A stretch of DNA of 64,000 nt from Gammaproteobacteria bacterium (GTDB lineage: Bacteria > Pseudomonadota > Gammaproteobacteria > Natronospirales > REEB76): contig JBAWFA010000012.1 in assembly GCA_049591455.1 (NCBI GenBank), positions 71,824-135,823 of the forward strand, given 5' to 3'. Positions 2 through 17,293 of the stretch are shown one piece after another. The notes below the pieces were generated by a model, which saw only the letters and a list, made by a program, of their open reading frames with translations, was not told where the DNA came from and did not search any database. Position numbers and translations under genes: made by a program. Numbering within the stretch: position 1 is the first letter of the stretch; each line of letters opens with the position of its first letter.

Positions 2-970
2 AATCCTTCGCTAATCAGGGCGCGCCGCGTCGCGGTCCTGGGTTTTGGCGCCCAAGGGCGGGCGCAAGCGATGAATCTCAAGGATTCCGGCGTCAATGTA
101 TGCGTCGGCCTGCGGTCCGGTTCGGCCTCACGCACGGCGGCGGAAGCGGCCGGGCTGAAGTTCGCAGAACTCGCTGCGGCGGTGGCCAAGTCCGACGTGG
201 TTGTGATGCTGCTTCCAGATGAAAGCCAGCCAAAGATCTATGAGGAAATCGTGGTGCCGACGCTCAGGAAAAACGGTGCGTTGATATTTGCCCACGGTTA
301 CAACATTCATTATCAGAGGATTGTTCCGCGCGCCGATTTGGACGTGATGCTGGTTGCGCCCAACGGTATCGGAGAGCAGGTCCGCGCGCAGTACCTGGCG
401 GACCGCGGCGTGCCCGCACTGGTGGCTGTGCATCAGGATGTCAGCGGCAATGCGCGTGCGCTGGCTTTGTCCTATGCATGGGCCCAGGGGCACGGGCGTG
501 CCGGCATTATCGAGTCGAGCTTCCGCGAGGAAACCGAGACTGATTTGTTTGCAGAGCAAGCGGTGCTGTGTGGCGGTCTGACCCATCTGATTCTGGCGGC
601 ATTCGACACATTAGTGGACGCTGGTTATGAATCGGAAGTGGCGTATTTTGCCTGCCTGCATGAAGTGAAGCTCATGGCCGATATGATTTGCAAAAGCGGC
701 ATCGCCGGCATGCGGGAATCCATTTCCACGACCGCTGAATTCGGCGATTACACCCGCGGTCCACGGGTTATCGGTGAAACATCGCGTGCGGCCATGAAGG
801 ATATACTGAATGAAATCCAGGGCGGCAAGTTCGCCGCGGAGCTCAGCCGCGAACTGGATGCCGGCATGCCCACTATCAAGGTGGAACGCATTCGGGCGCG
901 TACCCAGCTCATCGAGGCCGTAGGCAAGACGCTGCGGGAGCGCATGCAAGGCCGCAGCCGATCTGTCTGA
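2..970 (+). CDS. ilvC: Ketol-acid reductoisomerase-like protein (class I KARI family), 5' end outside window
   Basis: The frame is open from the window edge, upstream of the listed Met (..VAVLGFGAQGRAQAMNLKDSG Rossmann motif). KARI hallmarks GLRSGSAS, FAHGYNIHY, EETETDLFAEQAVLCGG and ISTTAEFGDY are present. The usual APKGPGH motif reads APNGIGE (see findings). Confidence 0.85.
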   Translation, partial: NPSLIRARRVAVLGFGAQGRAQAMNLKDSGVNVCVGLRSGSASRTAAEAAGLKFAELAAAVAKSDVVVMLLPDESQPKIYEEIVVPTLRKNGALIFAHGYNIHYQRIVPRADLDVMLVAPNGIGEQVRAQYLADRGVPALVAVHQDVSGNARALALSYAWAQGHGRAGIIESSFREETETDLFAEQAVLCGGLTHLILAAFDTLVDAGYESEVAYFACLHEVKLMADMICKSGIAGMRESISTTAEFGDYTRGPRVIGETSRAAMKDILNEIQGGKFAAELSRELDAGMPTIKVERIRARTQLIEAVGKTLRERMQGRSRSV

Positions 971-1033
971 GGGGTTTATTCGCTCCACACAGCCGGTCAT
1001 GGCATCATAGTGTCCTCATTCAGAGGCCATGAC

Positions 1034-1870
1034 ATGTCTTTACCCATGAATCCCGATCCGGACGTTGATACTGAAGTCGGTATTGACGAGCAGGTGGGCG
1101 AAACGGACGACGCCGGCGTTGAAGGCCCGCGCCGCCGCGGCATCTATCTGTTGCCCAATCTGTTCACCACCGCAGGTTTATTCGCCGGCTTCTATGCAAT
1201 TGTTGCTGCCATGGCCGGTTATTTTCAAGCGGCCGCCATCGCGGTGTTCGTGGCCATGATCATGGACGGACTCGACGGACGCATCGCGCGGCTTACCCGT
1301 ACCGAAAGCGCGTTCGGCAAGGAATACGACAGCCTTTCCGACATGGTGTCGTTCGGTCTGGCGCCGGCGCTTGTCATGTACGAGTGGGCCTTCAAGGACA
1401 TGATCAATTACGGCTCCGTGTGGGGTAAGGTCGGCTGGCTGGGTGCGTTTTTCTATGCCATCACCGCGGCCTTGCGCTTGGCGCGTTTCAACGTGCGCAC
1501 CGGCGTGGTGGATAAGCGCTATTTCCAGGGTCTGCCGAGTCCGGCTGCCGCCGGTGTCGTTGCCGGTAGCGTATGGCTGGGCGTGGATCTGGGCATTCCC
1601 GGCCCGGCGCTAGTGATTCCCGCGTATGTGCTCACGGTGGCGGCGGGTGCGCTGATGGTGAGCAGTATCGGATATTACAGCTTCAAGGATGTCAATCTGC
1701 ACGGCCGTGTACCATTCACAACCATCCTCATAGTAGCCATCGCGATCATCGTACTGTCCCTGAGCACACCGAAGGTGCTGTTCATCGTGTTCTTTATTTA
1801 CGCCTGGTCCGGCCCTGTGACGGCACTATGGCGCTTGCGCCGGCGCCTGGTGCACCGGCACGTCCATTGA
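1034..1870 (+). CDS. pssA: CDP-diacylglycerol--serine O-phosphatidyltransferase (CDP-alcohol phosphatidyltransferase type)
   Basis: Carries the motif DGLDGRIARLTRTESAFGKEYDSLSDMVSFGLAP (DG..AR...G...D...D) and several TM segments. I chose the ATG at 1034, preceded by AGAGG, over the GTG at 1010. Confidence 0.85.
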   Translation: MSLPMNPDPDVDTEVGIDEQVGETDDAGVEGPRRRGIYLLPNLFTTAGLFAGFYAIVAAMAGYFQAAAIAVFVAMIMDGLDGRIARLTRTESAFGKEYDSLSDMVSFGLAPALVMYEWAFKDMINYGSVWGKVGWLGAFFYAITAALRLARFNVRTGVVDKRYFQGLPSPAAAGVVAGSVWLGVDLGIPGPALVIPAYVLTVAAGALMVSSIGYYSFKDVNLHGRVPFTTILIVAIAIIVLSLSTPKVLFIVFFIYAWSGPVTALWRLRRRLVHRHVH

Positions 1871-1876
1871 GCATAC

Positions 1877-2575
1877 ATGGATGCGCAACGCGCCCAGTAT
1901 TTGCGCGATCTCGGCATCACGGCCTGGGAGCGGCGCGAACGACTGAATGACTCGCAGGCTGCATCACCGGTGGAGCCCCCAGGCCTTCCCTCGGGTTCGC
2001 GCGATGCGGCCATCGCCGTCATGGACTGGCCGGCCCTGGAACAGGCGGTCAAGGTTTGCACTGCCTGCGGTCTGCGCGCCGGTTGTACTCAAACGGTTTT
2101 CGGCGTGGGGAATCGTCAGGCGGACTGGCTGGTGATCGGCGAAGCGCCTGGAGCCGATGAGGACAAGCAAGGTGAACCTTTCGTGGGCCGCGCGGGACAA
2201 TTGCTCAACTCCATGCTGCTGGCCATCGGACTCAAGCGCGAGCAGGTGTATATCGCCAACATTCTGAAATGCCGTCCGCCCGGCAACCGCGACCCGAAAC
2301 CAGAAGAAGCGGAACTCTGCCGGCCGTTCCTTGTTCGCCAGATCGCGCTCATCCAGCCGAAATTGATTCTCGCCGTGGGCCGCATTGCGGCCCAGAATTT
2401 GCTGAATACCGACACACCCATCGGCCGCCTGCGCGGCCACGTGCATCGGGTGAACGACATTCCAGTGGTGGTCACCTATCATCCGGCTTACCTGTTACGG
2501 TCGCCCGGCGAGAAACGTAAGTCCTGGGCTGATTTGCAGTTCGCTGTACGTGTTCTGAAGGGCGAACAGGCATGA
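1877..2575 (+). CDS. Uracil-DNA glycosylase, family 4
   Basis: Carries [18 protein letters not shown] and [12 protein letters not shown], with HPAYLLR near the C-terminus. The stop overlaps the rimI start. Confidence 0.85.
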
Positions 2576-3039
2576 GCGCGGTCGTCGCCATCATCGAATC
2601 ACCGCTGTACCGCCCCATGCGCGAGGAGGATGTGCGCGCGGTCATGGAGATCGAAAAGCGCGCCTACCAGTTCCATTGGACCGAAGGCATTTTCCGCGAT
2701 TGTCTGCGGGTAGGCTACGGCTGCTGGATCATGGAGCTGGGTGACGGCATCGGCGGCTACGGCATTCTGTCGCTGGTGGTGGGCGAGGCGCATCTGCTGA
2801 ACGTCTGCGTGGCGCCAGAATGGCAACGGCAGGGTTACGGCCGGCTGCTGCTGGAGCATTTTATCGAACTGGCGCGTGAGCGCGGCGCTTATCAAATGCT
2901 GCTGGAAGTGCGGCCTTCCAACAAATCCGCGCTGCGGCTGTACCGCACTCGCGGTTTTGAGGAAGTTGGTTTGCGCAAGAATTACTATCCAGGCACCCAC
3001 AGCCGGGAAGACGCGATTATCTTGAGCTTGCCGCTATAA
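2572..3039 (+). CDS. rimI: Ribosomal-protein-alanine N-acetyltransferase (GNAT)
   Basis: Has a GNAT core (VAPEWQRQGYGRLLLEHF, LEVRPSN..ALRLY), is about 150 aa long, and has a 4-bp overlap with the upstream gene. Confidence 0.8.
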   Translation: MSAVVAIIESPLYRPMREEDVRAVMEIEKRAYQFHWTEGIFRDCLRVGYGCWIMELGDGIGGYGILSLVVGEAHLLNVCVAPEWQRQGYGRLLLEHFIELARERGAYQMLLEVRPSNKSALRLYRTRGFEEVGLRKNYYPGTHSREDAIILSLPL

Positions 3040-3095
3040 ATCGTCCGCGCGCTGCAATCAGGTAAAATACGCGCTTTCCCTAGGGTTCCGTATCC

Positions 3096-4691
3096 ATGTT
3101 CGACCAGGAAATCGGCCGGCGTCGCACCTTTGCGATCATTTCGCACCCGGATGCCGGTAAGACCACACTGACGGAGAAGCTGCTGTTGTTCGGCGGCGCG
3201 ATCCAGTTGGCTGGCGCTGTGAAGGGCCGCAAGGCCGCGCGCCACGCTACCTCCGACTGGATGGCATTGGAGCAGCAGCGCGGCATTTCCGTCACCTCTT
3301 CGGTGATGCAGTTTCCGTACAAACACTGCATCGTAAATCTGTTGGACACTCCGGGTCACGAGGATTTTTCCGAGGATACTTACCGCACCCTCACGGCGGT
3401 GGATTCCGCGCTCATGGTGATTGACTGCGCCAAGGGCGTGGAGGAACGCACCATCAAACTCATGGATGTGTGCCGTCTGCGCGACACACCCATCATGACG
3501 TTTATCAACAAACTGGATCGCGACGGCCGCGACCCAATGGGCTTGCTGGATGAAGTAGAATCAGTTTTGAGAATCCGCTGTGCGCCTGTTACCTGGCCCA
3601 TCGGCATGGGCCGCGAGCTGAAAGGCATCTACCATTTCTCCGAAGACCGCATCTACATATACGCAGATGACAAGACCGGTCGGCTGGGCGAGACGCGTAT
3701 CATTCAGGGCTTGTTGAGCGAAGAAGCCCATGCGGTGCTGGGCCGCGATGCGCAGAGTATCCGTGCTGAAGTGGAACTGGTGCGCGGAGCATCACATGCG
3801 TTTGACAAGCAGGAATATCTTGCCGGCCGATTGACGCCGGTGTTTTTTGGCTCAGCCATCAACAACTTTGGCGTGCGTGAACTGCTGGATTCCTTTGTGG
3901 AACACGCGCCAGCGCCGCGCGCGCGCGCGGCCGCCACCCGCGTAGTGCAGCCGCTGGAGGACAAACTCACCGGTTTTGTGTTCAAGATACAGGCCAACAT
4001 GGACCCACAGCACCACGACCGCATCGCCTTCATGCGCCTGTGCTCGGGGCGTTACGCGCCCGGCATGCGCGCCCAGCACGTGCGCATCGGCCGTGAGGTC
4101 AAGATTCCTGACGCGCTTACCTTCATGGCGTCCGAGCGCGAACGCGTTGATGAGGCATTTGCCGGGGACATCATCGGTATCCACAATCATGGCACTGTCG
4201 CCATCGGTGACACGTTCACCCAGGGCGAGAATTTGCAGTTCACGGGAATCCCCAACTTCGCGCCGGAACTGTTTCGTCGCGTAATACTCAAAGATCCGCT
4301 CAAGTCCAAGGCGCTCAATAAGGGGCTGGACCAATTGTGCGAGGAGGGCGCTACCCAGTTATTCCGGCCCCTGCGCAACAACGAACTCATTCTGGGCGCA
4401 GTAGGCCTGCTGCAGTTCGATGTGGTGGCATTCCGGCTCAAGAGCGAATACGGCGTGGATTGCATCTTCGAGAGCGTGCCGGTGGCCACCGCGCGCTGGA
4501 TCGAATGCGACGATGCAAAAAAACTCGATGAATTCAAAAACAGAACCTTCGATAATCTGGCACTGGATCATGCCGACAGTCTAGTGTACGTGGCGCCTAC
4601 GCAGGTGAATCTGCAACTCACCCAGGATCGCTGGCCGGACGTGCGGTTCCGCAAGACGCGTGAACATGGTGTTGAAGCCGCCGTCACTTGA
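3096..4691 (+). CDS. prfC: Peptide chain release factor 3 (GTPase)
   Basis: Carries [26 protein letters not shown] and NKLD G-motifs, and RF3-like sequence runs the full 531 aa. Confidence 0.95.
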
Positions 4692-6119: not shown

Positions 6120-6227
6120 GGCGCGGGATTTAATCCATATTGGAACCTGCGAAATCGGGCCAGTCGTGGCACAATCTGGCCTTGGGCGATGGCATGTTGC
6201 CGTTGCCAAAACTGGCGGGAGGGATTT

Positions 6228-6944
6228 ATGAAGCGGTTGTTTCTGAGCCTGATTCCCTTGGCTCTGGCAGGGCTCGCGGTGGGCTGCAGTTCTTCGGGTT
6301 CGGGCTTTGTGCTCGTAGGCGTGCCCGGGCAGAATTCCTATACCGACAGCGCCAATATCCTGATAGGCAACGGTCAGTGCAGCTATGTCATCTATCGCGG
6401 CGACGGCGTGAATCCTCCAGAGGTGGTGACACCTTGCGCGGTGGTTGCGGATAAGAAGGATGCTCTGGGCAACCCCCACGGCCACATGCAGATTGGGTTT
6501 AATACTACAAAGGGAGTACAGATCCTTTCGCTCAGCGAAACCGGCACCAACGGCGAATTTGCCAGTGCCATCCCTGACATTGGCGTGTATCTGCCAAACA
6601 ACTGGAATATCGTACCTCCGGCTGACAGCCTGATCCTCAAAGCCGCTGCACAAGGAAGTGTCTATGCGAACCTGATGGTGTCCATAGGCGGTGCCCGTTG
6701 CTCCCTGACAGTCGTACCGGCTGCCAGCAATGTCCCGGTCAACATGCCCTGTGGGTTGATGTCCTGGAGCGACACTTCGGTGTCAATCAGCATACCAGGG
6801 GCGCTGGTCTCGACGATCTATACCGCACGTTCCTGGCCACTGCATTTCGCCGTAGATGCAACCAAAAGTGGTAGCTGGAATCTTTTGACGCCCCCACTTG
6901 GATTTCCCACCACCTACGTGGTGGCAAGTGGTTCAGGCAGCTAA
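6228..6944 (+). CDS. Lipoprotein, unknown function
   Basis: The ATG at 6228 follows GGGAGGGA. The signal peptide has a lipobox (LAGLAVGC-SSSGSG). I recognised no family. Confidence 0.6.
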   Translation: MKRLFLSLIPLALAGLAVGCSSSGSGFVLVGVPGQNSYTDSANILIGNGQCSYVIYRGDGVNPPEVVTPCAVVADKKDALGNPHGHMQIGFNTTKGVQILSLSETGTNGEFASAIPDIGVYLPNNWNIVPPADSLILKAAAQGSVYANLMVSIGGARCSLTVVPAASNVPVNMPCGLMSWSDTSVSISIPGALVSTIYTARSWPLHFAVDATKSGSWNLLTPPLGFPTTYVVASGSGS

Positions 6945-7031: not shown

Positions 7032-7799
7032 ATGAACAAAACCCATAGATTAATGCTTGTCTTATGCCTGTTCGTCACGGGCTTGTGCACTGCTGCTACC
7101 GCACCATCGGAATCATGGGTCACGACTTCCAAAGCACCGTGTGATGGATTGACCATCGGCTGGACACCCCGGCTTGACGTGTTGCAAAAAGCACTTGGTT
7201 CCCGCTGGCAACCAGCGGAAGGGCCGGTAAAAGGCCACGGCATCCTGTTGTTGTTCGCCACTTCCTGTCCGCAATCCCATATCGGTAAAATCGCCAGTGG
7301 ACCATTCACCATCGGCGCAGTCATCATCCCGGTGCAGACGCCAAAAGATACGCACGGTGTACAGCAATCAAACGGACACGGTTGGGCGGTGATACCGGAT
7401 GCGCTCGGGCCGGCATCCGGCGCCGTCATGCATTTATTCAAGCGCCATGGTTTCGCCGTCACCGATGCCAAGGTGGCGCTCGGCATTCACAAAACCCCGA
7501 AGGGCAACGAAACCAGCATGAGCTTCATGACAGCGGAGGGGAATATCGAGGTCCGCGCGTTGATATTGGGGCCGGCCAAACGCTTCGGTTACGTTAGTGC
7601 ACTCGCCGGGGCCAATCCGTCGGTCTTTTCGCTTTTCACCGGATCTGAATCGGCGTCGCGACAAGCACAAGGTACTGCCACCGTAACGGCGCAAGGCAAC
7701 ACCTGGGTTTCGCGCTTGGGACTGGATGCGAAACCGAAGATGGTGATGCTGGATCAAGGCTTTATCTGGTCTTTTCAGTTTTCAGATAAGCCGTATTGA
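7032..7799 (+). CDS. Secreted protein, unknown function
   Basis: N-terminal signal peptide MNKTHRLMLVLCLFVTGLCTAATA. A 17-nt palindrome (7807-7823) follows the stop. Confidence 0.55.
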   Translation: MNKTHRLMLVLCLFVTGLCTAATAPSESWVTTSKAPCDGLTIGWTPRLDVLQKALGSRWQPAEGPVKGHGILLLFATSCPQSHIGKIASGPFTIGAVIIPVQTPKDTHGVQQSNGHGWAVIPDALGPASGAVMHLFKRHGFAVTDAKVALGIHKTPKGNETSMSFMTAEGNIEVRALILGPAKRFGYVSALAGANPSVFSLFTGSESASRQAQGTATVTAQGNTWVSRLGLDAKPKMVMLDQGFIWSFQFSDKPY

Positions 7800-7832
7800 T
7801 CTGAACAGGTACGCCGCGTACCTACACATCAT

Positions 7833-7999
7833 CGACCTCAGCATTATGAGCTTGGACTTAGAATTTGCGTCTCTAACCAAATCAGTCACTTACGGCGCTT
7901 GCCTTTTCCAAAACCGCATCTCAATAGTCAGTAAACGCATCGCAGCGCATGCTGGCGTGGCACAATTCAGGCACAGTGAACACTGACTGCAGTCGGCCA
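7833..7999 (-). repeat. R1: 18-nt tRNA-Met(CAU) core (7833-7850) plus 149-bp conserved U flank (7851-7999)
   Basis: CGACCTCAGCATTATGAG matches the tRNA-half copies at 13164 and 14302. The adjacent 149 bp differ at only 4 positions from 13209-13357. Confidence 0.85.
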
Positions 8000-8666
8000 A
8001 CTGCGGACCATCAGCTCTCGAAATCTGGCGCCTGAAACCAGACATTCGGCCGGTTTGCAGGCTTCTATATTGATGATGGTGCCGCTGATTGAAACGGCAA
8101 TTCCGATCTCAGTATCGAGTTCTACGAGCGTATCGAGCTCCCATCCGTATATAGTCACACGCCGCGATAGCGCTGAACAGTATTGAAGACGACGCAAGCT
8201 TCATACCCGGTGGTTCGATTATGTATGCTCCTATTGGTGCGAATTGGATAATCTGGCGTCGCTTGTGTATGCAAATTCTTCCCGGCAGAGCGCAGTCAGC
8301 TACAGCGCGATAAATGACTTCTGCCGAGTCACAAAGATGGTCTGACGGCGTTCTGCGGCCTAGACGGGTCGGGCGCTTGACATTGAAAGGTGATAGGACT
8401 AGACCCTTAACATGGACACTGCGAATATCCGAGAATCTTGATGGGTCAGATATCGAGGCGATACTGAGCTGAAAGCCGCGCACAAGAGAATCGGCATAAC
8501 ATGCAGATGGTGAAAGCCGTGTACACGTTAAGCGCTGGAATTAAGGACGGCCGTAGTCTGCTGAAATGTGCGAGTTGCTGCCGAGCGTGTTACATCGTTA
8601 GACGACCCATCTGAACCCAGGAATACCCGGACCTTCCACTTTTCGAGGCGTCACTGGGAGCAGGCC

Positions 8667-10097
8667 GTGAACAAAACATTCCTGATACAGAGAAAACGTT
8701 TTGGGGTTTGGCGTGTGCGCAGTGATGCCCTCCCGATGGCCGCGCTACTTTTAGCCCTAGCTGTCGGCTTTTCGGCGTTCGTAAGCAGCGCGTTCGCCGG
8801 GACCCCGTCGGCTTACAGCCAGGTAATTGGGGCGACCCATATTTTGTCGTTGTCCATTCCAGCTGCCGCAAATATACCAAAGCAACCAAATACTGTTACC
8901 TACATCACCCTAACCGTCAGCGACACGTACTTATACCCGGTCATATTCGAGTGCACTATTGATGGTGTTCCGACTCCCGACGTCGTCACACCGACTGACG
9001 ACGGCGCGCCGAGCACCGGCGGTGCCACTGCGGTGTGGAATCCGACTCCCGTCGGAACAGGAAACGAGACTATTCTAACCATGGCGACCATGCTCCAGAC
9101 GGAGCCGGCGGTCTACACGATTACGGTTTCCGGAATCGGAGTGTTATGCGGACAGTACCCCAGCAGCACCATCATAATGACGCTGCTACCGGCTCTCACC
9201 CTGCAGCGAGATGATTTGACGACTGTTGAGGCTACCGGCTACCCGTCGACGGGCGGCACATTCGGCTATACCGTCGCGCCGGTGGCGGGATCGAGCGCAG
9301 AGGATGTCTCGGTTGGGTTTGCGACGGGCAACAACGCAACGACGGATCCGAACACAGCCACACTCACGGCCCCTGCACTCAATTGCAACCCTCCGGGAGC
9401 CCCGTGCCATGGAGGTTTGGTGAGCGTCACGACCAATTTCATGGACAACATGCTGACCGCGTCCAACGACACGGACAATCCCTACGAAGTCGCGACCTTC
9501 GGCACCTCCTGTTACGACACCGCGCTCGAATCGGACTGGGGTAACCCGGGTGCGCAACCCCCGCCGCCGCCGCCTGGCCTGAAGTTTCCGCCTCCTCCGG
9601 TTGGGGTTCTGCCTGGCCAGAATTCAACTTGCACGAGCATATCGTACAACGGTATCACGTATTCGGGCGTTGTCGAGAATCCGGATGGGCTTACCGGCAC
9701 CTATTGCAGTTCATTCATTTTGGATGCGGAACTGCAAGGCAGTGCCCAGCTCAGCTACCACCCCATTGCCCCACAGATATATATCCAATACAACTCGTCT
9801 ACTGGTACGTTCAGCTACGTCAGCGTAATCGAAGCTGCGGACGGTACTCCACCAGTCGCGAACCAGACGGTCGCGCGAGATCGGGCCATCATTCCGGTTC
9901 ACAACAGTTACATTGACTTGGATCAGATCGGCACCGGACTCCTCGCCAACGATATAGGCGGGGCCATTACGGGTTATCGGATCGATCTCTACAAAGGCAT
10001 CGGTCAACAGGTTTGCGTCGACTACAACAACATCATGACGGTGGGCGCGTGCGAGACAGCTGGGCAAGCAAATTGCCCAACCAGTCCGTTGCAATAA
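8667..10097 (+). CDS. Secreted protein with proline-rich linker and C-terminal 3D (MltA-like) domain
   Basis: The GTG at 8667 follows GGGAG. Signal peptide ..MAALLLALAVGFSAFVSSAFAG, a PPPPPPPGLKFPPPPVG linker, and the C-terminal VARDRAIIP...LANDIGGAITGYRIDLYKG pattern with three conserved Asp. The start is uncertain (the ATG at 8736 is an alternative). Confidence 0.65.
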   Translation: MNKTFLIQRKRFGVWRVRSDALPMAALLLALAVGFSAFVSSAFAGTPSAYSQVIGATHILSLSIPAAANIPKQPNTVTYITLTVSDTYLYPVIFECTIDGVPTPDVVTPTDDGAPSTGGATAVWNPTPVGTGNETILTMATMLQTEPAVYTITVSGIGVLCGQYPSSTIIMTLLPALTLQRDDLTTVEATGYPSTGGTFGYTVAPVAGSSAEDVSVGFATGNNATTDPNTATLTAPALNCNPPGAPCHGGLVSVTTNFMDNMLTASNDTDNPYEVATFGTSCYDTALESDWGNPGAQPPPPPPGLKFPPPPVGVLPGQNSTCTSISYNGITYSGVVENPDGLTGTYCSSFILDAELQGSAQLSYHPIAPQIYIQYNSSTGTFSYVSVIEAADGTPPVANQTVARDRAIIPVHNSYIDLDQIGTGLLANDIGGAITGYRIDLYKGIGQQVCVDYNNIMTVGACETAGQANCPTSPLQ

Positions 10098-10109
10098 AAG
10101 GAGAGTGCC

Positions 10110-11192
10110 ATGAAACAGATTACCACGATGGTGTTGATGTTGGTCTTGATGTTGGTGTCCGCGGGCGCCATCGCCGCCGGCGACCAGATAGACACGGTCA
10201 TCGTCAAGAATAATGAAATCTATCTTTCGGTTGGATCGGGGCCGATGGTGCGGCTTACCCATGACGGTATCCGCAAAGGTTACCCGCTGTTTTCGAAGGA
10301 CGGTTCCAAGATCGCATTTATCGAGAAACCTGACCGTCCCGCCTTGGACATGATCATCGTTATCAACAGGCAGGGACGTGAACTGGACCGCGTCTACGTC
10401 CACCCGCAGCAGGCAGTTGGAGCACAGGAAGCTGACCCTAGCCTAATTGGAATGTCCTACGTGGAACAGATGGAATGGCTTAACAATTCACGCATCGCGG
10501 TCCGCGGTGGCATTAACCCGTCTACCTCCGAAAACCTCATCTATGATCTGCCGCCACACGGCTTGCCGGTTCAGTTCTCAGATGATGGGGTTGTAAGTTA
10601 TTCTCCTGACGGTCGGCACTTCGCATACGAAAATGGCATGCCGCACTTCACACCGGTAAACGAGCAGATGCCTACCTTGAACATTAACTACAAGCCCGTC
10701 TATCCTACTTCGCATAGTCAGGTCGAATTCATTTCCGCGCTGCGGTGGTCTCCGGGTAGCGAGGCGCTTGCGGTGCTGGTGCGGGATTCCCATTCCGGCT
10801 CGCTGAAACTCGCGATCTGGCACGTTGGCGGCGCCGTCACCACTGCCCTCTTGCCGGCCACGGGGACTGCCCTGGCGCTCTTGCCGGACGCCAACACCGG
10901 TGCTTATCACGCGGACGTGTACTATGCCAATGATGGCTGGATTGTGAAATCTACAGGCCAGGGCGGTGTGGGATCCATGGGCCAGGGTGAAATGCAGTCC
11001 ACAGGCCACAGCGGAGCCTGGCAGTTATCGGCAGACGGCCAGAGTTTTCAGCCTCTTCAAGGCGAGGTGCCACCTGATCCCATGGTGGCGGCGCAAGAAC
11101 TGCGACACCAGCTTGTGATGCACGCACCCCCTGTCGGGACGGGCTCTGTGGATTTCTGGTGCAAGAGTTGCGCTTTATCCGTATTGCCATGA
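10110..11192 (+). CDS. Secreted PD40/TolB-like beta-propeller repeat protein
   Basis: AAGGAGAG SD sequence and a signal peptide. PD40-type repeats are present (LTHDGIRKGYPLFSKDGSKIAFIE, YSPDGRHFAYE, RWSPGSEALAV). Confidence 0.7.
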   Translation: MKQITTMVLMLVLMLVSAGAIAAGDQIDTVIVKNNEIYLSVGSGPMVRLTHDGIRKGYPLFSKDGSKIAFIEKPDRPALDMIIVINRQGRELDRVYVHPQQAVGAQEADPSLIGMSYVEQMEWLNNSRIAVRGGINPSTSENLIYDLPPHGLPVQFSDDGVVSYSPDGRHFAYENGMPHFTPVNEQMPTLNINYKPVYPTSHSQVEFISALRWSPGSEALAVLVRDSHSGSLKLAIWHVGGAVTTALLPATGTALALLPDANTGAYHADVYYANDGWIVKSTGQGGVGSMGQGEMQSTGHSGAWQLSADGQSFQPLQGEVPPDPMVAAQELRHQLVMHAPPVGTGSVDFWCKSCALSVLP

Positions 11193-11280
11193 CGCATGGG
11201 CACCGATTGAGCGTTGGTAAAACCTTGGGCCGTGCTCGCCACATTTTCCACGCTGCCGCTTGACCTTTTGGATTAGACAA

Positions 11281-11314
11281 ACACCCGCATGATCATCTAC
11301 GGTCATGCGGGTGT
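11281..11314 (+). terminator. 12-bp stem hairpin downstream of the beta-propeller gene (possible terminator, no T-run)
   Basis: ACACCCGCATGA-10 nt-TCATGCGGGTGT form perfect inverted arms. Confidence 0.35.
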
Positions 11315-11321
11315 GATGTAA

Positions 11322-12230
11322 TTGCTACCGAAGTGGCTATGGATGCTGCTTTGCCCAACCGAGGAATCGAATGCGCGTTGGAAAAACCACCTGCCTCGTG
11401 CAGATCGCAGTTTTGTGCACGGTACTTATTCGACCAGCGCCTGGGCAGCCGCAGCGGTAACCCACACCCAGCCACTCCTTACCCTGAGTCTCGCTCAGGC
11501 AAATTCCGCCATCGCGTCCGCCAGTCATGGCCAAGCGCACGCCCTCAAGTTGTTTCGCGGCCCAGACGGGCTGGTCGGCGCAGTTATTGAAGGGCCGTCA
11601 AAGACGCTTGGCATCGCGTGGCTCACGCGACACGGCAAAGCGGTGCTGAGTGGAGACATGCTGATCGGTCCCGGCGGCACCGATCTCACCAAGGAGGCGA
11701 TGTTCTCGCAGGGGCTGCTGTTGCGCCCTGCTGCGGCGCTTGAGCAGGCGGCGGCACTGGCGACCCACGGAATCATGGTTGGGACAGCCGGACCACGCAT
11801 TACCGTGTTCTTTGACCCAAACTGCATCTACTGCCACCAGCTCTACCTGGCTTTGACTCCCCAAGTGGCTGCCAGCAAGGTGCGCGTGCGCTATGTGATT
11901 GTCGGGGTGCTCAAGGAGAGCAGCCTGCCGCGCGCCGCGTCAATACTGGCCGCCAAGAATCCGTCGCAAGCGTTGAATCTCGACGAGGCCGACTTCGATG
12001 TGAAAACCGAGGAAGGTGGCTATCCGGTCGCCGCCGCTCTCAGTCCCGCATTTAAACGCGCGGTCGAGGCAAACAACAGCCTGTTCAGTCGCGCGGGCCT
12101 CGATGGTACGCCGACCATTCTTTACTGTGTCAAGGCGACGAAGGACGTCCAGGTGTTTACCGGTATCCCGAAAGACATCATGACCTTTGTCGCTAGCGCG
12201 GGCGATGGCGCAGCCAAAGTGTGTGAATGA
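11322..12230 (+). CDS. DsbC/DsbG-family thiol:disulfide interchange protein (start uncertain)
   Basis: Thioredoxin-fold core ITVFFDPNCIYCHQLY (CxxC) and a cis-Pro region GTPTILY. The N-terminal part resembles a DsbC/G dimerisation domain. A signal-peptide-like MRVGKTTCLVQIAVLCTVLI lies in a different frame at 11371, so the 5' end may be frameshifted or mis-set. Confidence 0.65.
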   Translation: MLPKWLWMLLCPTEESNARWKNHLPRADRSFVHGTYSTSAWAAAAVTHTQPLLTLSLAQANSAIASASHGQAHALKLFRGPDGLVGAVIEGPSKTLGIAWLTRHGKAVLSGDMLIGPGGTDLTKEAMFSQGLLLRPAAALEQAAALATHGIMVGTAGPRITVFFDPNCIYCHQLYLALTPQVAASKVRVRYVIVGVLKESSLPRAASILAAKNPSQALNLDEADFDVKTEEGGYPVAAALSPAFKRAVEANNSLFSRAGLDGTPTILYCVKATKDVQVFTGIPKDIMTFVASAGDGAAKVCE

Positions 12231-12316
12231 AGGCGACACGGACTCAAGGCCACGCCTAACATCAGCTTGTTGTCATCGGGCTGCCATAGAGCGGACGGTC
12301 GCCACCGTCTGGAAAA

Positions 12317-12666
12317 GGGTTGAAAACGGTCTATAGCCGAAAGCAAATCTGCAGTTATTTACAAAATCAAATGCCAACGATTATGGAATTGGTGGCTATG
12401 GGTGGGCGCGAAGCATTGCTTCGCGCGGGCAGGCAGGAAGCCTGCACTGGGCAGGTGAATTGCACAGGATGTGCAACTCACCGACGGACTACCGGCCTCA
12501 TATATCAGCATTATGAGCTTGGACTAGGAATTTCCATTTCTAACTTAATCAGTCACTTACGGCGCTTGATCTTTCCGATACCGCATTTCAATTATCAGTA
12601 AACGCATCACAGCGCATCCTGTCGTGGCACAATCAAGACACAGTTAACAATGACGGCAGTCGACCA
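12317..12666 (-). repeat. R2: D flank (12317-12389) + tRNA acceptor copy (12390-12405) + about 100-nt structured insert + core (12506-12517) + diverged U flank (12518-12666)
   Basis: The D flank has 3 mismatches to 14229-14301. TGGTGGCTATGGGTGG is identical to the other copies. The insert contains three hairpins. The U flank is alignable to 7851-7999 with many substitutions. Confidence 0.8.
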
Positions 12667-12695
12667 GACGCAGACATTCATATGCAAGGTAGACT

Positions 12696-13052
12696 ATGAA
12701 CAAACGCATTATACGAAATATGTGTTTTTTAGCAGCAACTCTGTTGATAATCATTTTATTGATGATTTTATCCCCTCTTCGTTACTATCCTGGCGTAACT
12801 GTTGATAAAATGAAGGTGGAACTTAATTCAAATCTTCCGGTCGGCACACCAAAAGATAAGGTCATAGCATTTCTTGATAATCATCACATAGAACGTTCAG
12901 AATATTCTATGAATGATCATGATATCGGTGCAATTATCCGAAACACATGTTGGAGTGGTCTCTTAGAATGTGATATTGAAATGAAATTCACCTTTGATTC
13001 AAATGGCATGTTGGTTAGAACAACTGTTGCAGAGGGTTTGACCGGACTATGA
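12696..13052 (+). CDS. Small membrane-anchored protein, unknown function (AT-rich)
   Basis: 118-aa ORF with an N-terminal TM helix (CFLAATLLIIILLMILSPL). Its base composition is clearly lower in GC than its surroundings. No family recognised. Confidence 0.45.
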   Translation: MNKRIIRNMCFLAATLLIIILLMILSPLRYYPGVTVDKMKVELNSNLPVGTPKDKVIAFLDNHHIERSEYSMNDHDIGAIIRNTCWSGLLECDIEMKFTFDSNGMLVRTTVAEGLTGL

Positions 13053-13163
13053 GCGATCCATACTGTTTCAATGGAACGAAATGAATGCCCGCTTAGGGTC
13101 GATAGCAGCTTGCGATCGTAGGTGTACATTACGATTAATTGCGGCAATGGTTTCTGATCAAAT

Positions 13164-13357
13164 TAGTGGCTATGGGTGGACTCGAACCACCGACCTCAGC
13201 ATTATGAGCTTGGACTTAGAATTTGCGTCTCTAACCAAATCAGTCACTTACGGCGCTTGCCTTTTTCAAAACCGCATCTCAATAGTCAGTAAACGCATCT
13301 CAGCGCATGCTGACGTGGCACAATCCAGGCACAGTGAACACTGACTGCAGTCGGCCA
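13164..13357 (-). repeat. R3: tRNA-Met(CAU) 3' half (13164-13208) plus U flank (13209-13357)
   Basis: The reverse complement reads CTCATAATGCTGAGGTCGGTGGTTCGAGTCCACCCATAGCCACTA (CCA reads CTA). The U flank is near-identical to 7851-7999. Confidence 0.85.
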
Positions 13358-13414
13358 GAAGCCGAAGTACGGATCCTCGAATTGCCTTCCCACCAGCGGA
13401 CGTTCATAAACCAG

Positions 13415-14098
13415 TTACCGACGCACTCCCGCATATTGCAGTTGAGCGCACTGCCCTGGTTCCAGATGAATCGACTCAGGATTCGTATAGATTTCGCTGT
13501 ATATGGTCTGTTCGACGATGTTTGGGGCGACATGCACACTATATAGACCAGGCGGCACCCGCATCGAAAATAGACCCTTATTATTCGATACCACCCTGTG
13601 GATCCCACCCAGGCCAGTGGCGACTACCGAGACACCCGGCAGAGGCGAGGAGTAGTCTGCCGCCAGTACCTCACCTTCAATTATTGCAAACGTTTGCTTT
13701 GAAGCTTGCAGTCGCTCTATTTCCGCAGACACTACTGCCACTTTGGACGGATCAGACAATGGTTCTTCATCGCAGCCGATTTCCAACCGGTTATCGTTCC
13801 GATAGGCAAACAAGACATACTTGGCGCCTGCGTCCAAAGAGAGCCTACCGGAGTCGTTGCCTGTATCGAAGTACCGTGTGGGAAGCTGCTGACCTTTAAA
13901 AGTCTTTTCAATGCTGATTTTGTAGTGAATCCAATCTGCATTGCGTTGCACGGACAACACTTTCCCACGCACGACAACGTCCGCCTGGAAATACGCGCTG
14001 CAGACCTTTGGAGGCGGCGCAGAACAAAATGCGCTCGCAACGCCGCTCATGAATACGGCGGCAGTTCCAAGCCCAATAGCAAAGTATCTCTTGCTCAT
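13415..14098 (-). CDS. Secreted protein: TIMP/NTR-like N-terminal module plus carboxypeptidase-regulatory-like domain
   Basis: Signal peptide, then CSAPPPKVCSAYFQADVVVRGKVLSV...YKISIEKTFKG...YVLFAY...IGC, which follows the TIMP N-domain pattern. The C-terminus IEGEVLAADYSSPLPGVSVVATG...GLFSMRVPPGLYSV follows the CarboxypepD_reg pattern. Confidence 0.6.
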   Translation of the reverse strand: MSKRYFAIGLGTAAVFMSGVASAFCSAPPPKVCSAYFQADVVVRGKVLSVQRNADWIHYKISIEKTFKGQQLPTRYFDTGNDSGRLSLDAGAKYVLFAYRNDNRLEIGCDEEPLSDPSKVAVVSAEIERLQASKQTFAIIEGEVLAADYSSPLPGVSVVATGLGGIHRVVSNNKGLFSMRVPPGLYSVHVAPNIVEQTIYSEIYTNPESIHLEPGQCAQLQYAGVRR

Positions 14099-14228
14099 CG
14101 CGTAACCCTCTCCGCTCGGGACTTGAGATCAAGTCGAAACCCCAAACTCGCTGCATCCAGCACGCGCTGTACTGACTGATGCCGTAATTCTAGGCGTCCG
14201 ATAACGGCCCGTCACGAAGGTCAACTCT

Positions 14229-14346
14229 GGGTCGAAAACGGTCTATAGCCGAAAGCAAATCTGCAGTTATTTACCAAAACAAATGCCAACGATTATGGAA
14301 TTGGTGGCTATGGGTGGACTCGAACCACCGACCTCAGCATTATGAG
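14229..14346 (-). repeat. R4: D flank (14229-14301) plus tRNA-Met(CAU) 3' half (14302-14346), abutting and overlapping the tgpA stop
   Basis: This is a full 45-nt 3' half including CCA. Sequence beyond 14346 is the tgpA coding end, not a tRNA 5' half. Confidence 0.85.
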
Positions 14347-16313
14347 TGCGAAGGTCGGAAAGTTCGGACCAGACTCCTGAATTCCTGCGCGCTGCCCATT
14401 TCCGCGTAGCGCAGATTTATATATAGCGACGTGATCGTATTTACACGATCCGCCAAGTCAGGCCGCGAGCGGCCGATGCGTTTGGCGTAATCCATCGGTC
14501 CTTCATGAGACTCACGCGCCAAACCGCACTTCGCGAGTTTGTTGCAGAAACGGCGGTAATCACGCAACACTGCAGACGGTGGCGGCGTCCGCAGTCGCCA
14601 CCAGAATATCAGCCATACCAGAATCAGGATTCCGCCGATGAGTATCAGCAGCACCAGCGCCAGTTGCAGCCAGTTACCGTAATTCAGACCCACGCGGGCG
14701 AAAAAATGCTGCTGCAATTCCGGTCCATAGGCCAGCACCCACTGGTACCAGCCGTTGTTGACCGCGTCCCAGGTATCGCGCAGATTTCCAACCCAGGGAT
14801 GGGCATTGAAGAAATAGCCGGGTACTTCACCGGCGGGCAGCGCCGCGGCCAGGCCTTCATCCACCCGTGCCGGGTCCACGGCTGCAGTGGGGTCCACCCG
14901 CACCCAGCCGTGGCCGGCGAGCCAGACTTCCGCCCAGGCATGGGCGTCTTCCTGACGCACGATGTAATACCCATCCACCGGGTTCTGCAACCCACCCTGA
15001 TAACCGATAACCACGTGCGCTGGAATGCCGGCAGCGCGCATCAGAAACACGAAAGCACTGGCGTAGTGTTCGCAGAATCCACGGCGCGTGTCGAACAGGA
15101 ATTCATCAATGCGGTTTGGGCCTGTAAGCAGATCGGGTTGTAGCGTGTACCGGAATGGCTCATCGTGGAATAGGCGTAATGCATCCCCGACAACTTGCTG
15201 CGGAGTCGCAGCGCCGGAGCCCCATTGTTTTGCCAATGCGCGAGCCTTGGGATCAACGCTATCCGGCAGCCGCAGGTCACGGCGCAAGATCCAGCTTGGC
15301 GCGTTAGCGCCATGACTGTAATCCGTGTAAGAGGTGACGGCATACAGCTTGCGGTCCGTGACGGTTTGCGGCGTGACCAACTCGTAGTCAGCTGTTAAAT
15401 GTGTGTTGTCAGGGACCTGTACCGGCAGGTCCAGAGCGTAAAGCACGTGAAGGTTATTGGGTTCCAGAGTCACTTGATAGCGTACCGGTGTGCCGCGGGT
15501 TGAAAGGGTTTCGCTGCTGCTCCACAAGGGGTTGCCGGTAGTCCAGGTCTTACCGTCGTAGTCGTGCAGCACCAGTGCGCGCCAGTAAAGTTGCGAGCGG
15601 GGAGGAGGGGCGCTCAGGAATTTCACCTGGAAGGCGATGGCATCGGATTGGGCCAGCCTGCTGAGACTGCCGGGCGACATGTGGGTGGACAGGCCAGTGA
15701 CCGCCGAATGCTGCGGCAGAGCCAGCCCCCACAAGGGACCCGGGATACGCGGAAATAGCAGGAACAGCACCAGGGCGATGGGCAGCGCGGGCAGCAGCAT
15801 GCGCGCGGCGGTTTTCACCGACGCCAGGGGCGTGCGGCTAATATCCGGATGGGCCACGTTGAGCAGTGCCGCGATGGCGAGCCACACGGCGGGGATCATG
15901 TAGATGGCCAGCGGAATGGTCTGATCGTACAGAAAATTCGCAATGCCGATAAATAGCGTGATCACCATTACCAGGAAATAATCCCGCAAGCCTTTGGCTT
16001 CCATGAGCTTCAGGGCCGCCAGCAGAATCAGCAATGCGGTGCCCGCTTCCGGTCCGTTGAAGGTGCGGTAGGTGGCGAACACGCCGAGGAAAATCAGCAG
16101 GCCAAATCCGATGCGCGTGTAACGGTTGAATAGCGGCCAGCCGCGGTAGGCCGCAGCCAGCCGCCACAGCACGATCAGGGCGGCGGCGAACACGATCCAG
16201 GGTGCGAGATGCAGCAGATGAGGCAAGGTCATGAGCAGCATGGCCGCAAGTACCCATAGCAGCCGCGTACGTTCCATGCGCGCATCTAGATTCATCGGCA
16301 ATATCGCGTTCAT
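14340..16313 (-). CDS. Transglutaminase-like membrane protein (TgpA type: N-terminal multi-TM region, transglutaminase core, C-terminal TM)
   Basis: Cys-His-Asp core GFCEHYASAFVFLMRAAGIPAHVV...DAHAWAEVW. I set the start at ATG 16313, which makes an ATGA stop/start overlap with the DUF58 gene. The track ORF extends further upstream, which is implausible. Confidence 0.85.
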   Translation of the reverse strand: MNAILPMNLDARMERTRLLWVLAAMLLMTLPHLLHLAPWIVFAAALIVLWRLAAAYRGWPLFNRYTRIGFGLLIFLGVFATYRTFNGPEAGTALLILLAALKLMEAKGLRDYFLVMVITLFIGIANFLYDQTIPLAIYMIPAVWLAIAALLNVAHPDISRTPLASVKTAARMLLPALPIALVLFLLFPRIPGPLWGLALPQHSAVTGLSTHMSPGSLSRLAQSDAIAFQVKFLSAPPPRSQLYWRALVLHDYDGKTWTTGNPLWSSSETLSTRGTPVRYQVTLEPNNLHVLYALDLPVQVPDNTHLTADYELVTPQTVTDRKLYAVTSYTDYSHGANAPSWILRRDLRLPDSVDPKARALAKQWGSGAATPQQVVGDALRLFHDEPFRYTLQPDLLTGPNRIDEFLFDTRRGFCEHYASAFVFLMRAAGIPAHVVIGYQGGLQNPVDGYYIVRQEDAHAWAEVWLAGHGWVRVDPTAAVDPARVDEGLAAALPAGEVPGYFFNAHPWVGNLRDTWDAVNNGWYQWVLAYGPELQQHFFARVGLNYGNWLQLALVLLILIGGILILVWLIFWWRLRTPPPSAVLRDYRRFCNKLAKCGLARESHEGPMDYAKRIGRSRPDLADRVNTITSLYINLRYAEMGSAQEFRSLVRTFRPSHS

Positions 16314-17293
16314 GATGTGCGGCCGCTGGTTGTGCCGAACAAAGCCAGCGCTTCGAGACAACGATCCCGGTGGGTATCGCCACCGGCGACAGGAATTGCA
16401 GTGCCGGGCATACGCAAGCCGTAATTCAGATTTTCCGCATGCGCTGTGAGCACCCAACGGCATAATACCGACAAGCGTTTTTCCGGATCGAGCCCCGGCA
16501 GTGCATCCCATTCCAGCCAGCGTTGTTCCTCGCCGCTGCCGGTAAATTGTTTGGTGAGGAGCTTTTGTTCGCGCGCCGAAGCTTTCCAGGCAATATGCCG
16601 CGGCGAATCGCCGGGCCGGTAACCGCGCAAACCGCTGAAATCTTCTTCACCCCGATCCGTGGGCCGTTCGCCACCGCGCCCGCTCTGGGGCGGAGGCAGG
16701 GGCGGGGCGGCATCCGCGGGCTTCGGATACACCAGCATCCACAGGTCCATATAAACCCAGCTCCAGGCGCGGAACAAACCAAAGGGATAAGTGGTTTCCA
16801 CCTCCAGCCGCTCCAGTTTGAGCCAGCCGCGTTTCTCCGCCAGCAGCGGCACTGCCACGCTGCCGTGATTGGCCGCAGCGACATCACCCGTGATGGTGGT
16901 GTCGCCGTTTTCGGCGCTCAGCGTAATGGCAATGCGCGCCGCGCGGCCCGGATTGTTTATATGCAGGCGGAACCGAGCAGTTTCGCCGGCAAACACCGCC
17001 AGTGTTTTGCCCGCGCTGATTTCCAGTCCCGTGAGGTTGGCGTGGCAGGCATGCATGGCCACGAAACTCAGGCCGGTCAGCATGAAGGTCAGCATGAAGC
17101 CCATGCTGTTGGAATAGTTCATGGAACCCAACAGCATCACGAACACGGCAAAACCGTAAAGCAGACCTTGACGTGTGGGCAGTATGTATATACGGCGGCG
17201 TTCGAGGCGCACCACGTCACCGTCCGGTCCCTGGCGGCGGCGCGCCCAGGTTTGTATGCGGCGATTCAGGAAGTCACGCGTGGCGGCTAACAT
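16310..17293 (-). CDS. DUF58 family protein (MoxR-associated)
   Basis: DUF58 signature DFSGLRGYRPGDSPRHIAWKASAR, two N-terminal TM helices, and a position between moxR and tgpA. Confidence 0.85.
   Translation of the reverse strand: MLAATRDFLNRRIQTWARRRQGPDGDVVRLERRRIYILPTRQGLLYGFAVFVMLLGSMNYSNSMGFMLTFMLTGLSFVAMHACHANLTGLEISAGKTLAVFAGETARFRLHINNPGRAARIAITLSAENGDTTITGDVAAANHGSVAVPLLAEKRGWLKLERLEVETTYPFGLFRAWSWVYMDLWMLVYPKPADAAPPLPPPQSGRGGERPTDRGEEDFSGLRGYRPGDSPRHIAWKASAREQKLLTKQFTGSGEEQRWLEWDALPGLDPEKRLSVLCRWVLTAHAENLNYGLRMPGTAIPVAGGDTHRDRCLEALALFGTTSGRTS

Follow-up and report, generated by a model that had tools for sequence, protein, structure and literature searches.

Downstream of tgpA, the gene for the transglutaminase TgpA, a gammaproteobacterium represented by a metagenome-assembled genome (MAG; assembly GCA_049591455.1, contig JBAWFA010000012.1) carries a tract of about 6.5 kb in which the 3′ half of a tRNA-Met(CAU) gene, or its core, is found four times. 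The tract lies in the 64-kb stretch of this contig analyzed here as a whole and called the window from now on. The tRNA pieces divide it into three modules (E1, E2, and E3) with different genes, bordered by two conserved sequences, an upstream arm (U) and a downstream arm (D), whose positions are given in Table 1. We consider it reasonably probable that these are three recombinase-less modules resembling cis-mobilizable elements (CIMEs), gathered in a tandem accretion at the stop codon of tgpA.

Organization of the Tract

Sequence reading and pattern searches over positions 7500-14700 placed the four copies of the tRNA-Met(CAU) 3′ half or core, all direct and all on the minus strand, exactly where a preliminary description of this DNA had seen them. 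The complete form is a 45-mer (CTCATAATGCTGAGGTCGGTGGTTCGAGTCCACCCATAGCCACCA) that occurs without change at 14346-14302 and with a single mismatch, turning CCA into CTA, at 13208-13164; window shuffles gave 0 matches to it. It can be parsed into the loop CTCATAA, the stem strand TGCTG, the variable loop AGGTC, the T arm GGTGG-TTCGAGT-CCACC, the acceptor strand CATAGCC, the discriminator A and, finally, CCA. All the copies start at CTCATAA, at loop position 32; their 5′ neighbor is tgpA or U and in no case an anticodon-stem 5′ strand of a tRNA. The absence of a tRNA 5′ half, noticed earlier, agrees with the results of ARAGORN and Rfam, which find no tRNA gene in the tract (7.5-14.7 kb), the only tRNA genes of the window being tRNA-Glu at 33.5 kb and tRNA-Leu at 60.1 kb.

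An intact tRNA with the same 3′ half, which had been proposed as something to look for, was found in sequences other than the source genome: the 45-mer matches positions 32-76 of the intact tRNA-Met of Legionella adelaidensis at 45/45 positions, and the intact tRNA-Met genes terminating three IMG/VR proviruses at 44/45. The full gene (GGCTATGTAGCTCAGCCGGTTAGAGC...) resembles the elongator tRNA-Met of E. coli and not the initiator or tRNA-Ile2, and the repeat core is a genuine elongator tRNA-Met 3′ half. In two of those three proviruses an integrase-like open reading frame (ORF) begins ~220 nt downstream of the tRNA-Met. A provirus with a 17-nt 3′-end repeat of the same tRNA-Met was also seen (L023; handles of this form denote the sequences used for comparison).

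The arms correspond to what had been described. By repeat finding and BLAST, U1 and U2 are 97.3% identical over 149 nt, U3 is a diverged version, 83% identical to both, and D1 and D2 are 95.9% identical over 73 nt; counted over the window, no further copies of U or D lie outside the tract. The modules measure about 1.1 kb (E1), 0.65 kb (E2), and 4.5 kb (E3). E1 and E3 have both arms in common and unrelated cargo, and E2 has a U of 83% identity, another downstream arm and a GC content of ~38%. Because the arms and the GC content of E2 differ from those of E1 and E3, at least two element subtypes and several donors have to be supposed. The minimum in GC content, 0.378 at 12501-13000 versus about 0.55-0.62 around, coincides with the single small gene of E2 and, judging from composition, implies a recent donor that would have been low in GC.

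Pfam was run on 59 non-overlapping ORFs of at least 90 aa from the whole window and revealed no integrase, resolvase, transposase, or excisionase domain, PF00589 included; tblastn with three integrase queries gave no match in the window, and no integrase remnant was found in the three modules. The earlier statement that neither the tract nor the window encodes a recombinase therefore holds. A secreted or envelope nature of the cargo is plausible from the predicted N-terminal hydrophobic leaders and from the Pfam matches (3D, PD40, Thioredoxin_2, and CarboxypepD_reg). The layout was compared with a second assembly, the Logan unitigs of sample SRR28024125, in which the segments labelled cargo A (L001) and cargo C (L002) each appear with their D and U ends, and a further unitig (L043) independently holds the flank-core-U junction. 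Exact-protein look-ups with cargo A, cargo C, and the 7032-7799 gene returned this sample only.

Table 1. Positions of the features of the tract and of corresponding features in related sequences (window coordinates unless a comparison sequence is named).
Feature	Position	Strand	Basis or remark
tgpA (transglutaminase TgpA), proposed target gene	14340..16511	-	Pfam TgpA_N, Transglut_core, DUF4129
Copy 1, complete 3′ half, 5′ side fused to tgpA, attL-type junction	14302..14346	-	45/45 to Legionella tRNA-Met
D1, 73-bp downstream arm, contains GGCTATAG, complementary to acceptor 3′ strand	14229..14301	-	95.9% to D2
Module E1 cargo, one gene	13358..14228	-	Pfam CarboxypepD_reg; homologues elsewhere not bordered by U, D, or the half
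E1 gene, 227 aa, CarboxypepD_reg-like, N-terminal leader	13415-14098	-	Pfam
U2, 149-bp upstream arm	13209..13357	-	97.3% to U1; 80-89% to metagenome U copies
Copy 2, complete half (CCA to CTA), U2 before, non-D sequence after	13164..13208	-	Pattern search
Module E2 cargo, one small gene	12667..13163	+	GC ~38% vs. ~57% around
E2 gene, 118 aa, N-terminal membrane anchor	12696-13052	+	
U3, diverged upstream arm	12518..12666	-	83% to U1 and U2
Copy 3, long half, then D2	12390..12517	-	Homologous over full length to long halves of L026, L027, L028
Long-half insertion	window 12406-12504; L026:446-540; L028:2307-2395; L027 reverse complement 427-508	- (window)	
D2, downstream arm	12317..12389	-	95.9% to D1
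Module E3 cargo, three genes	8000..12316	+	Pfam
E3 gene 3, DsbC-like thioredoxin	11322-12230	+	Pfam Thioredoxin_2
E3 gene 2, PD40/Tricorn-like beta-propeller	10110-11192	+	Pfam PD40
E3 gene 1, 3D-domain protein	8568-10097	+	Pfam 3D
E3 stretch without Pfam-matching ORF, about 570 nt	8000-8567		
U1, upstream arm, distal end of the array	7851..7999	-	97.3% to U2
Copy 4, 18-nt core CTCATAATGCTGAGGTCG, native flank directly after, attR-type junction	7833..7850	-	
Native flank of copy 4, carries hairpin GGTACGCGGCGTACC	7800-7832		Conserved in L007, L009
Conserved chromosomal neighbor gene, 255 aa, N-terminal leader, convergent with tgpA	7032..7799	+	
Accessory DNA downstream of tgpA in relatives	L005:8054-11007; L004:9621-14214; L009:8049-14373		

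Junctions and Proposed Mechanism of Integration

The two ends of the tract are complementary. Copy 1 joins tgpA to the sequence from loop to CCA and then to D, with no U, and copy 4 joins U to the 18-nt core and then to the native flank; of the internal copies, both attP-like, copy 3 reads U/half/D and copy 2 reads U/half/different downstream arm. The attB and attP sites that can be reconstructed share exactly 18 nt. Complementary outer junctions of this type point to the product of an attP x attB exchange, i.e., of reciprocal site-specific recombination, and support the view that the repeats act as attL, attR, and attP-like junctions in which the core would be the anticodon loop plus the 3′ half of tRNA-Met.

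In the mechanism that we propose, the modules would owe their insertion to a tyrosine integrase that naturally targets an elongator tRNA-Met gene at its anticodon loop. The incoming DNA would have carried an attP-like site composed of arm U, the tRNA-Met sequence from loop position 32 to CCA, and arm D, with a different downstream arm in place of D in the donor of E2, and the recipient would have been the end of tgpA, where the final codons and the 3′ flank are similar to an anticodon arm (CAGCA-CTCATAA-TGCTGAGGTCG). A crossover in the common 18 nt would yield tgpA/half-D (attL) and U/core/native flank (attR), and the internal U/half/D junctions could derive from later insertions into either junction or from a composite pre-built at the true tRNA-Met locus. 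Any movement of the modules would depend on an integrase encoded outside the window. The class of the recombinase, the position of the crossover in the loop, the order of the events, and any present-day mobility are what we infer from the arrangement of the junctions.

At the sequence level the modules display the features by which CIMEs are recognized: copies of an att-type core and conserved arms flank each of them, and none contains integration or transfer genes. No remnants from an integrative and conjugative element (ICE) or from an integrative and mobilizable element (IME) were found in the three modules; decayed ICE parts do occur in related U-bearing islands (an integrase fragment and RadC, with TrwC in related contigs).

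The End of tgpA as a Putative Attachment Site

The TAA stop codon of tgpA (14342-14340) consists of the last three bases of the CTCATAA “loop” of copy 1, and the gene appears intact, since DUF4129 matches up to residue 719 of 723. A TgpA scan of species-representative genomes gave 19 orthologous loci, all but one from uncultured Gammaproteobacteria MAGs, with TgpA identities of 58-84% in 18 MAG loci and of 41% in the 19th. None of the 19 holds a tRNA gene, U, D, or the T arm and acceptor sequence at this position, and the segments with common ends and unrelated cargo, recognized as such from the beginning, are missing from 19/19. Because no relative has a tRNA beside tgpA, the insertion is better explained by a secondary site than by integration into a tRNA gene, and the end of tgpA looks like such a secondary attachment site. 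Of the integration at a tRNA 3′ end suggested by the preliminary description, the att-type junctions with a tRNA-Met core are thus retained, and the target is moved to the stop-codon region of tgpA.

The sequence of this region in the relatives is itself informative. Their native sequence, CAGCA-CTCATAA-TGCTG, makes the end of tgpA (CAGCACTCATAATGCTGAGGT in L009, CAGCACTTATAATGCTGAGGCCGGCAGTTC in L003) a near-perfect mimic of an anticodon arm, and the 3′ ends of these two loci, which read CCGCAGCACTCATAATGCTGAGGTGGGAGG (L009) and CCCCAGCACTTATAATGCTGAGGCCGGCAGTTCTCCGGTG (L003), continue after CAGCA/loop/TGCTG into a decayed tRNA half. L009 matches the half at 20/22 positions, and L003 matches the long-half variant described below at 27/32, extending past the T-loop insertion point; in each case 0/1000 shuffles score as well (p < 0.001). 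In L008 and L015 tgpA ends with CAGCAGTGATA (protein ...QQ*), already similar to CAGCACTCATA. When the tract is removed in silico, a plausible convergent intergenic region of 51 nt remains, running from tgpA through ...CGCA-CTCATAATGCTGAGGTCG-ATGATGTGTAGGTACGCGGCGTACCTGTTCAGATC to the end of the 7032-7799 gene and holding a terminator-like hairpin. We infer that the native terminus of tgpA may have offered a fortuitous pseudo-attB to a tRNA-Met-specific integrase, and that integration would have changed the last codons of TgpA to ...QHS*.

The surroundings of tgpA are variable. The gene is the convergent neighbor of a major facilitator superfamily (MFS) gene, to which it is nearly adjacent in the more distant L010, L013, L014, and L017; in L008 and L015 a lipoprotein gene (window 6189-6944) stands alone between the two, ~130-185 nt after tgpA, an arrangement that looks like the empty-site state. 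In closer relatives the interval contains a porin-like gene (L003), an ABC sugar transporter (L004), an RHS toxin with a putative immunity gene (L005), cytochrome b561, YceI, and peroxiredoxin (L006), or a permease and two paralogous membrane proteins (L009), and no integrase is visible in these intervals (L003-L009). Since the interval varies among close relatives, it can be regarded as a lineage-wide hot spot, the 6.5-kb tract being specific to this genome. The far side of the insertion site is marked by the 7032-7799 gene, whose homologues adjoin tgpA in L007 and L009.

The U and D Arms in Other Sequences

A search with the 21-mer spanning the U-core junction (AGTCCAAGCTCATAATGCTGA) retrieved six JGI/GenBank metagenome contigs, and protein-guided look-ups added six ENA/NCBI contigs with U and the half. 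In all of these 12 metagenome/MAG contigs U is fused to the tRNA-Met core or to core-like sequence; a core of ~120-145 nt is 80-89% identical, and each copy has different, unrelated cargo upstream of U. In these contigs and in the 64-kb window U does not, therefore, behave as the generic dispersed repeat feared at the outset, which would occupy many loci independently of tRNA sequences. The junction and internal block of U gave no match in viral contigs, and in phage and plasmid collections U and D match by their tRNA part alone. Alignments of 8 to 10 copies reveal an invariant block (GCGCCGTAAGTGACT) and direct repeats (TGTGCC twice, RRATGCGNT three times), and with 10 copies RNAalifold gives -14 kcal/mol with a covariation term of ~0. 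Given the direct repeats and the lack of structure and covariation, U looks like protein-binding DNA and not like structured RNA.

In L026, L027, L028, and L031-36 a conserved chromosomal neighborhood (MAPEG, HD-GYP, and GGDEF-EAL) comes after the half; probably this is where the native tRNA-Met gene of those organisms lies, and U and the half would then be an ordinary attR there. The acceptor strand of the halves differs by lineage (CATAGCC, CGTAGCC, and CGTAGCT), as expected if each half comes from the host’s own tRNA. Upstream of U the external contigs encode small hypothetical or secreted proteins, IS21, and decayed ICE parts, with no intact integrase within 2-5 kb.

Two of the external contigs have modules of their own. 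In L027 a HigBA pair between tRNA-Met fragments represents another integrase-less module. Between HigBA and MAPEG (reverse complement 1410-1610) the same contig has three more tRNA-Met pieces, namely 16 nt of the 3′ end, the core in inverted orientation (CCGACCTCAGCATTATG), and part of a long half, a pattern that suggests inversions and repeated rearrangement at its native tRNA-Met locus. In L029 (Ga0307372_10005517), a small integron lies between two U copies (830-3560): a fold-based scan finds attC-like palindromes at 975-1064 and 1492-1594 that bound two cassettes, the distal attC abuts the degenerate core (TTCATAGTGC) of the first U copy, and the IntI-like gene (2286-3227), immediately beside a U-half unit, is a pseudogene with two in-frame TAG codons. 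An integron was also considered for the window and rejected, as there are no attC-like palindromes in 7.8-14.3 kb and no IntI in the window, and in L029 the integron, with its intI pseudogene, is cargo.

A C-terminal fragment of a tyrosine recombinase abuts U in L028 (1964-2146) and in L031-36 (L031:10001-10246). Its closest homologues are short in 28/28 cases, and the fragments are truncated at different points; by profile search it belongs to an ordinary integrase family of ~345 aa with 6948 hits, one member of which (L048) adjoins a tRNA-Leu(TAA) in an ICE with a type IV coupling protein (T4CP), TrwC, and RadC. The best-scoring members of that family (...FHDLRHEAISRLFE.TDLDVMEI.AISGHKTLQMLARYTHLR...) are, with few exceptions, short C-terminal pieces (60-205 aa) and even the L048 copy is frameshifted, so decay of this integrase family seems unusually common. 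An integrase split by integration, as in Sulfolobus spindle-shaped virus (SSV)-type elements, was discarded on account of in-frame stops in the reverse complement of U, of the differing truncation points, and of the normal ~345-aa family. The fragment beside U appears to be part of a decayed ICE in the island and not demonstrably an enzyme acting on U.

As for D, the string GGCTATAG lies ~52 nt past CCA and is followed by GTTTTCGAC, giving a weak beta_tmRNA match (14231-14333, minus strand); it may be due to chance or be a relic of the 5′ end of a tandem tRNA-Met. That D might be a spacer plus the 5′ end of a second tandem tRNA-Met gene has a single matching string behind it, GGCTAT. A possible diverged D upstream of the cargo A homologue in L044 is not significant (41/500 shuffles score as well). 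In this homologue, 83% identical and from another sample, the similarity to cargo A stops a few nt from the inner edges of D and U (L044:1-146 and 1040-1184), and the gene adjoins, on reading by eye, an apparent cob(I)alamin adenosyltransferase C-terminus.

The Long-Half Variant

Copy 3 had been described as an interrupted copy. The copy is indeed split, by a hairpin-rich insertion of ~90 nt in the T loop and by 7 nt inserted after TGCT; it is not, however, a random disruption but a conserved variant, found in four other metagenome lineages besides the window. The insertion measures about 80-98 nt and follows GGTGGTTCG within the T loop. It has no match in Rfam, and since the conservation of its hairpins is uneven, nothing speaks for a function; an element targeting the T loop may have left it as a scar, or it may be a REP-like (repetitive extragenic palindromic) insertion.

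Alternative Explanations

Several observations weigh against tandem CIME-like modules. No cognate integrase was identified anywhere searched, and D, looked for by its junction in viral and metagenome contigs, by an internal block in viral contigs, and also in the phage and plasmid collections, was not found in any other sequence. Homologues of cargo A stand in three other contexts (L044, L045, and L047) without U, D, or half, and hence provide no evidence for a circulating pool of mini-elements. The copies of U and those of D differ by 3-4%, which means that the insertions took place some time ago or that the donors already differed from each other. The long half adjoins D in the window and the native chromosomal flank in L026-28; crossovers in the loop only could not produce both contexts, so that other recombination has to be admitted at these sites, be it homologous exchange between halves or the action of a second integrase on the tRNA 3′ end. 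The Logan unitigs end at every repeat, and the internal order of the segments hangs on the resolution of 97%-identical repeats in a MAG contig. One sample only holds the genome. The mobilization in trans put forward by the preliminary description has found no backing here, with no cognate integrase, circular form, empty site, or strain polymorphism found.

A rather unlikely account, which has the same integration origin and differs in history and present mobility alone, sees the tract as a fixed graveyard: three ordinary integrase-bearing islands or prophages would have integrated in turn, and each would later have lost its integrase and most of its genes by deletion, leaving inert scars that never moved as mini-elements and cannot be mobilized today. 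Decayed integrases are common at these sites (the fragment of L028 and L031-36, the intI pseudogene of L029), tandem partners are mostly decayed elements (PMC5704250), the copies of each arm are 3-4% apart, copy 2 has CTA for CCA, copy 3 is degenerate, and cargo A has homologues elsewhere without such ends. This history requires, however, that deletions in E1 and in E3 ended at identical points, the inner edges of the two arms (14229/12317 and 13357/7999), and that a 1.1-kb module was left with one intact cargo gene alone, and none of the three modules retains an integrase remnant. That U-half-D is instead a repeat of ~270 bp, similar to a REP or to a miniature inverted-repeat transposable element (MITE), spread between the genes of a pre-existing cluster so that the genes between copies are not cargo at all, is scarcely probable. 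U starts with GGYCGAC and D ends with TCGACC, a weak inverted repeat of 6-7 bp, the homology of cargo A with L044 stops almost at the D/U inner edges, and the T-loop insertion is hairpin-rich and REP-like; but copies 1 and 4 each hold a part of the unit that complements the other, divided exactly at a core common to the native tgpA end, as reciprocal site-specific recombination and not the insertion of a unit would leave them, the 19 relatives have none of the cargo at the orthologous locus, target-site duplications are not seen, and U never occurs without the tRNA-Met core, with none elsewhere in the window or in the phage and plasmid collections.

An assembly artefact, in which segments belonging at the true tRNA-Met locus were mis-joined to tgpA via the repeats, is to our judgment hardly credible, although the source is a MAG, the unitigs break at each repeat, and the repeats are 97% identical. 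Both outer junctions are in unique sequence and have independent backing, L043 carrying flank-core-U, and L003 and L009 also hold tRNA-half remnants at the tgpA stop, so that the site is real and an error is conceivable in the internal order alone. The most improbable proposal makes the repeats functional RNA genes, either tRNA-like or permuted transfer-messenger RNA (tmRNA)-like, with the T arm and acceptor pairing GGCUAUAG in D, or a small RNA formed by U and the half. It would account for the Rfam beta_tmRNA match at 14333-14231 (E = 9.5e-5), where CAUAGCC pairs with GGCUAUA over a 44-nt loop and UUUCGAC is aligned. With 24.7 bits, this match stays below the gathering threshold of 84, and it covers model positions 82-161 of 331 alone; there is no tag reading frame and no pseudoknot region, acceptor pair 3:70 is C:G and not G3:U70, copy 2 has no D and copy 4 no T arm, the fold of half and D is no better than shuffles (z = -0.3), the U alignment lacks covariation (-14 kcal/mol, term ~0), and the long-half versions have no Rfam match. 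A permuted tmRNA or tRNA-like RNA was rejected on the low Rfam score and on the fold.

Comparison With Known Systems

The tract had been held not to be assignable to a known family; its architecture nonetheless corresponds to the published sequence-level definition of CIMEs in tandem accretion (PMC5704250, PMC3146451). Tandem CIME-ICE/IME accretions are well described, and like the CIMEs of the ICESt1/CIME system of Streptococcus thermophilus (PMC5704250), the modules have attL/attR flanks, lack integration and transfer genes, and are in tandem at one site; as with CIMEs, their movement is presumed to need the integrase of a related element. Unlike that system, the modules are only 0.65-4.5 kb long with 1-3 genes, the secondary site coincides with the stop codon of a protein-coding gene, neither a partner ICE/IME nor an integrase is visible, and a descent from an ICE or IME would be conjectural. 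Dehalococcoides genomes also contain tandem islands bounded by ssrA 3′ repeats, 15 of which have no integration module and were proposed as CIMEs (PMC3146451). They share with the tract direct repeats of a 3′ end of a tRNA gene (tDNA) and a conserved sequence beside each repeat; those islands, however, lie downstream of an intact ssrA and involve a serine recombinase and a 20-bp repeat, in place of the 45-nt tRNA-Met half without intact target gene found here.

The anticodon-centred class A is the commonest type of tDNA attachment site, with 2083/3919 Islander islands (PMC4383910), and it is to this class (see also Williams 2002, cited in that paper) that the tract conforms, through an identity block from the anticodon loop to the tRNA 3′ end, displaced tDNA 3′ fragments in direct orientation (all four copies), and tandem arrays. 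An Islander-type island is recognized by an intact tDNA at one of its ends and by an integrase of its own, whereas no intact tRNA or tmRNA gene ends the tract or occurs at the 19 orthologous loci and no integrase is present in the tract, so that island finders of Islander logic would miss it because they require both. The tycheposon islands of Prochlorococcus, too, combine successive tRNA-site insertions, scattered partial tRNAs, and degenerate elements in hypervariable islands with niche-adaptive cargo (bioRxiv 10.1101/2020.12.28.424599), but tycheposons have their own tyrosine recombinase and replication modules, neither of which is in the tract. The own integrase and the replication or packaging-hijack genes that distinguish phage satellites (phage-inducible chromosomal islands, P4-like elements, and tycheposons) are not found in the cargo of the tract.

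Arrays of integron cassettes and clusters of attC sites lacking integron-integrases (CALINs) consist of single-gene recombinase-less units with a conserved site between them, the integrase being elsewhere. The tract is similar in having recombinase-less units with a conserved site between, but it has no attC (the same scan finds those of L029), its site is tRNA-derived and of ~270 bp, and the window has no IntI. By analogy with integrons, U-half-D could conceivably be, in this uncultured gammaproteobacterial lineage, the recombination site of a cassette-like gene capture: an integrase in trans would pick up, shuffle, and stack single genes or short operons, equipped with the ~270-bp site alone, at tRNA-Met and at anticodon-arm mimics such as the tgpA stop codon, the tRNA-derived site taking the place of attC; this is unlikely in our opinion. 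Integrase-less modules in three independent lineages (E1-E3 of the window, HigBA of L027, and the integron of L029) fit it, and the cargo A homologues without ends argue against a widely circulating cassette pool. Secondary, or pseudo-att, integration by phage or ICE integrases, for example that of lambda, uses sequences that merely resemble the core of the primary attB. The site at tgpA differs from lambda-type secondary sites in overlapping a stop codon and in that several lineages (window, L003, and L009) seem to have used or retained it.

If the CIME-like reading is correct, tRNA-specific integration can turn a protein-coding gene that resembles an anticodon arm into a hypervariable hot spot, and att-flanked recombinase-less modules can be single-gene in size. 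The tgpA-MFS interval, with different envelope or transport cargo in almost every relative, may serve as a marker of accessory-gene flux, and the modules, if individually mobilized, would be among the smallest CIME-type elements, blurring the line with gene cassettes. What is novel here is the stop-codon-overlapping secondary site, the very small size of the modules, and an undescribed family of arms; the whole is a new example of the known pile-up of islands and not a new kind of element.

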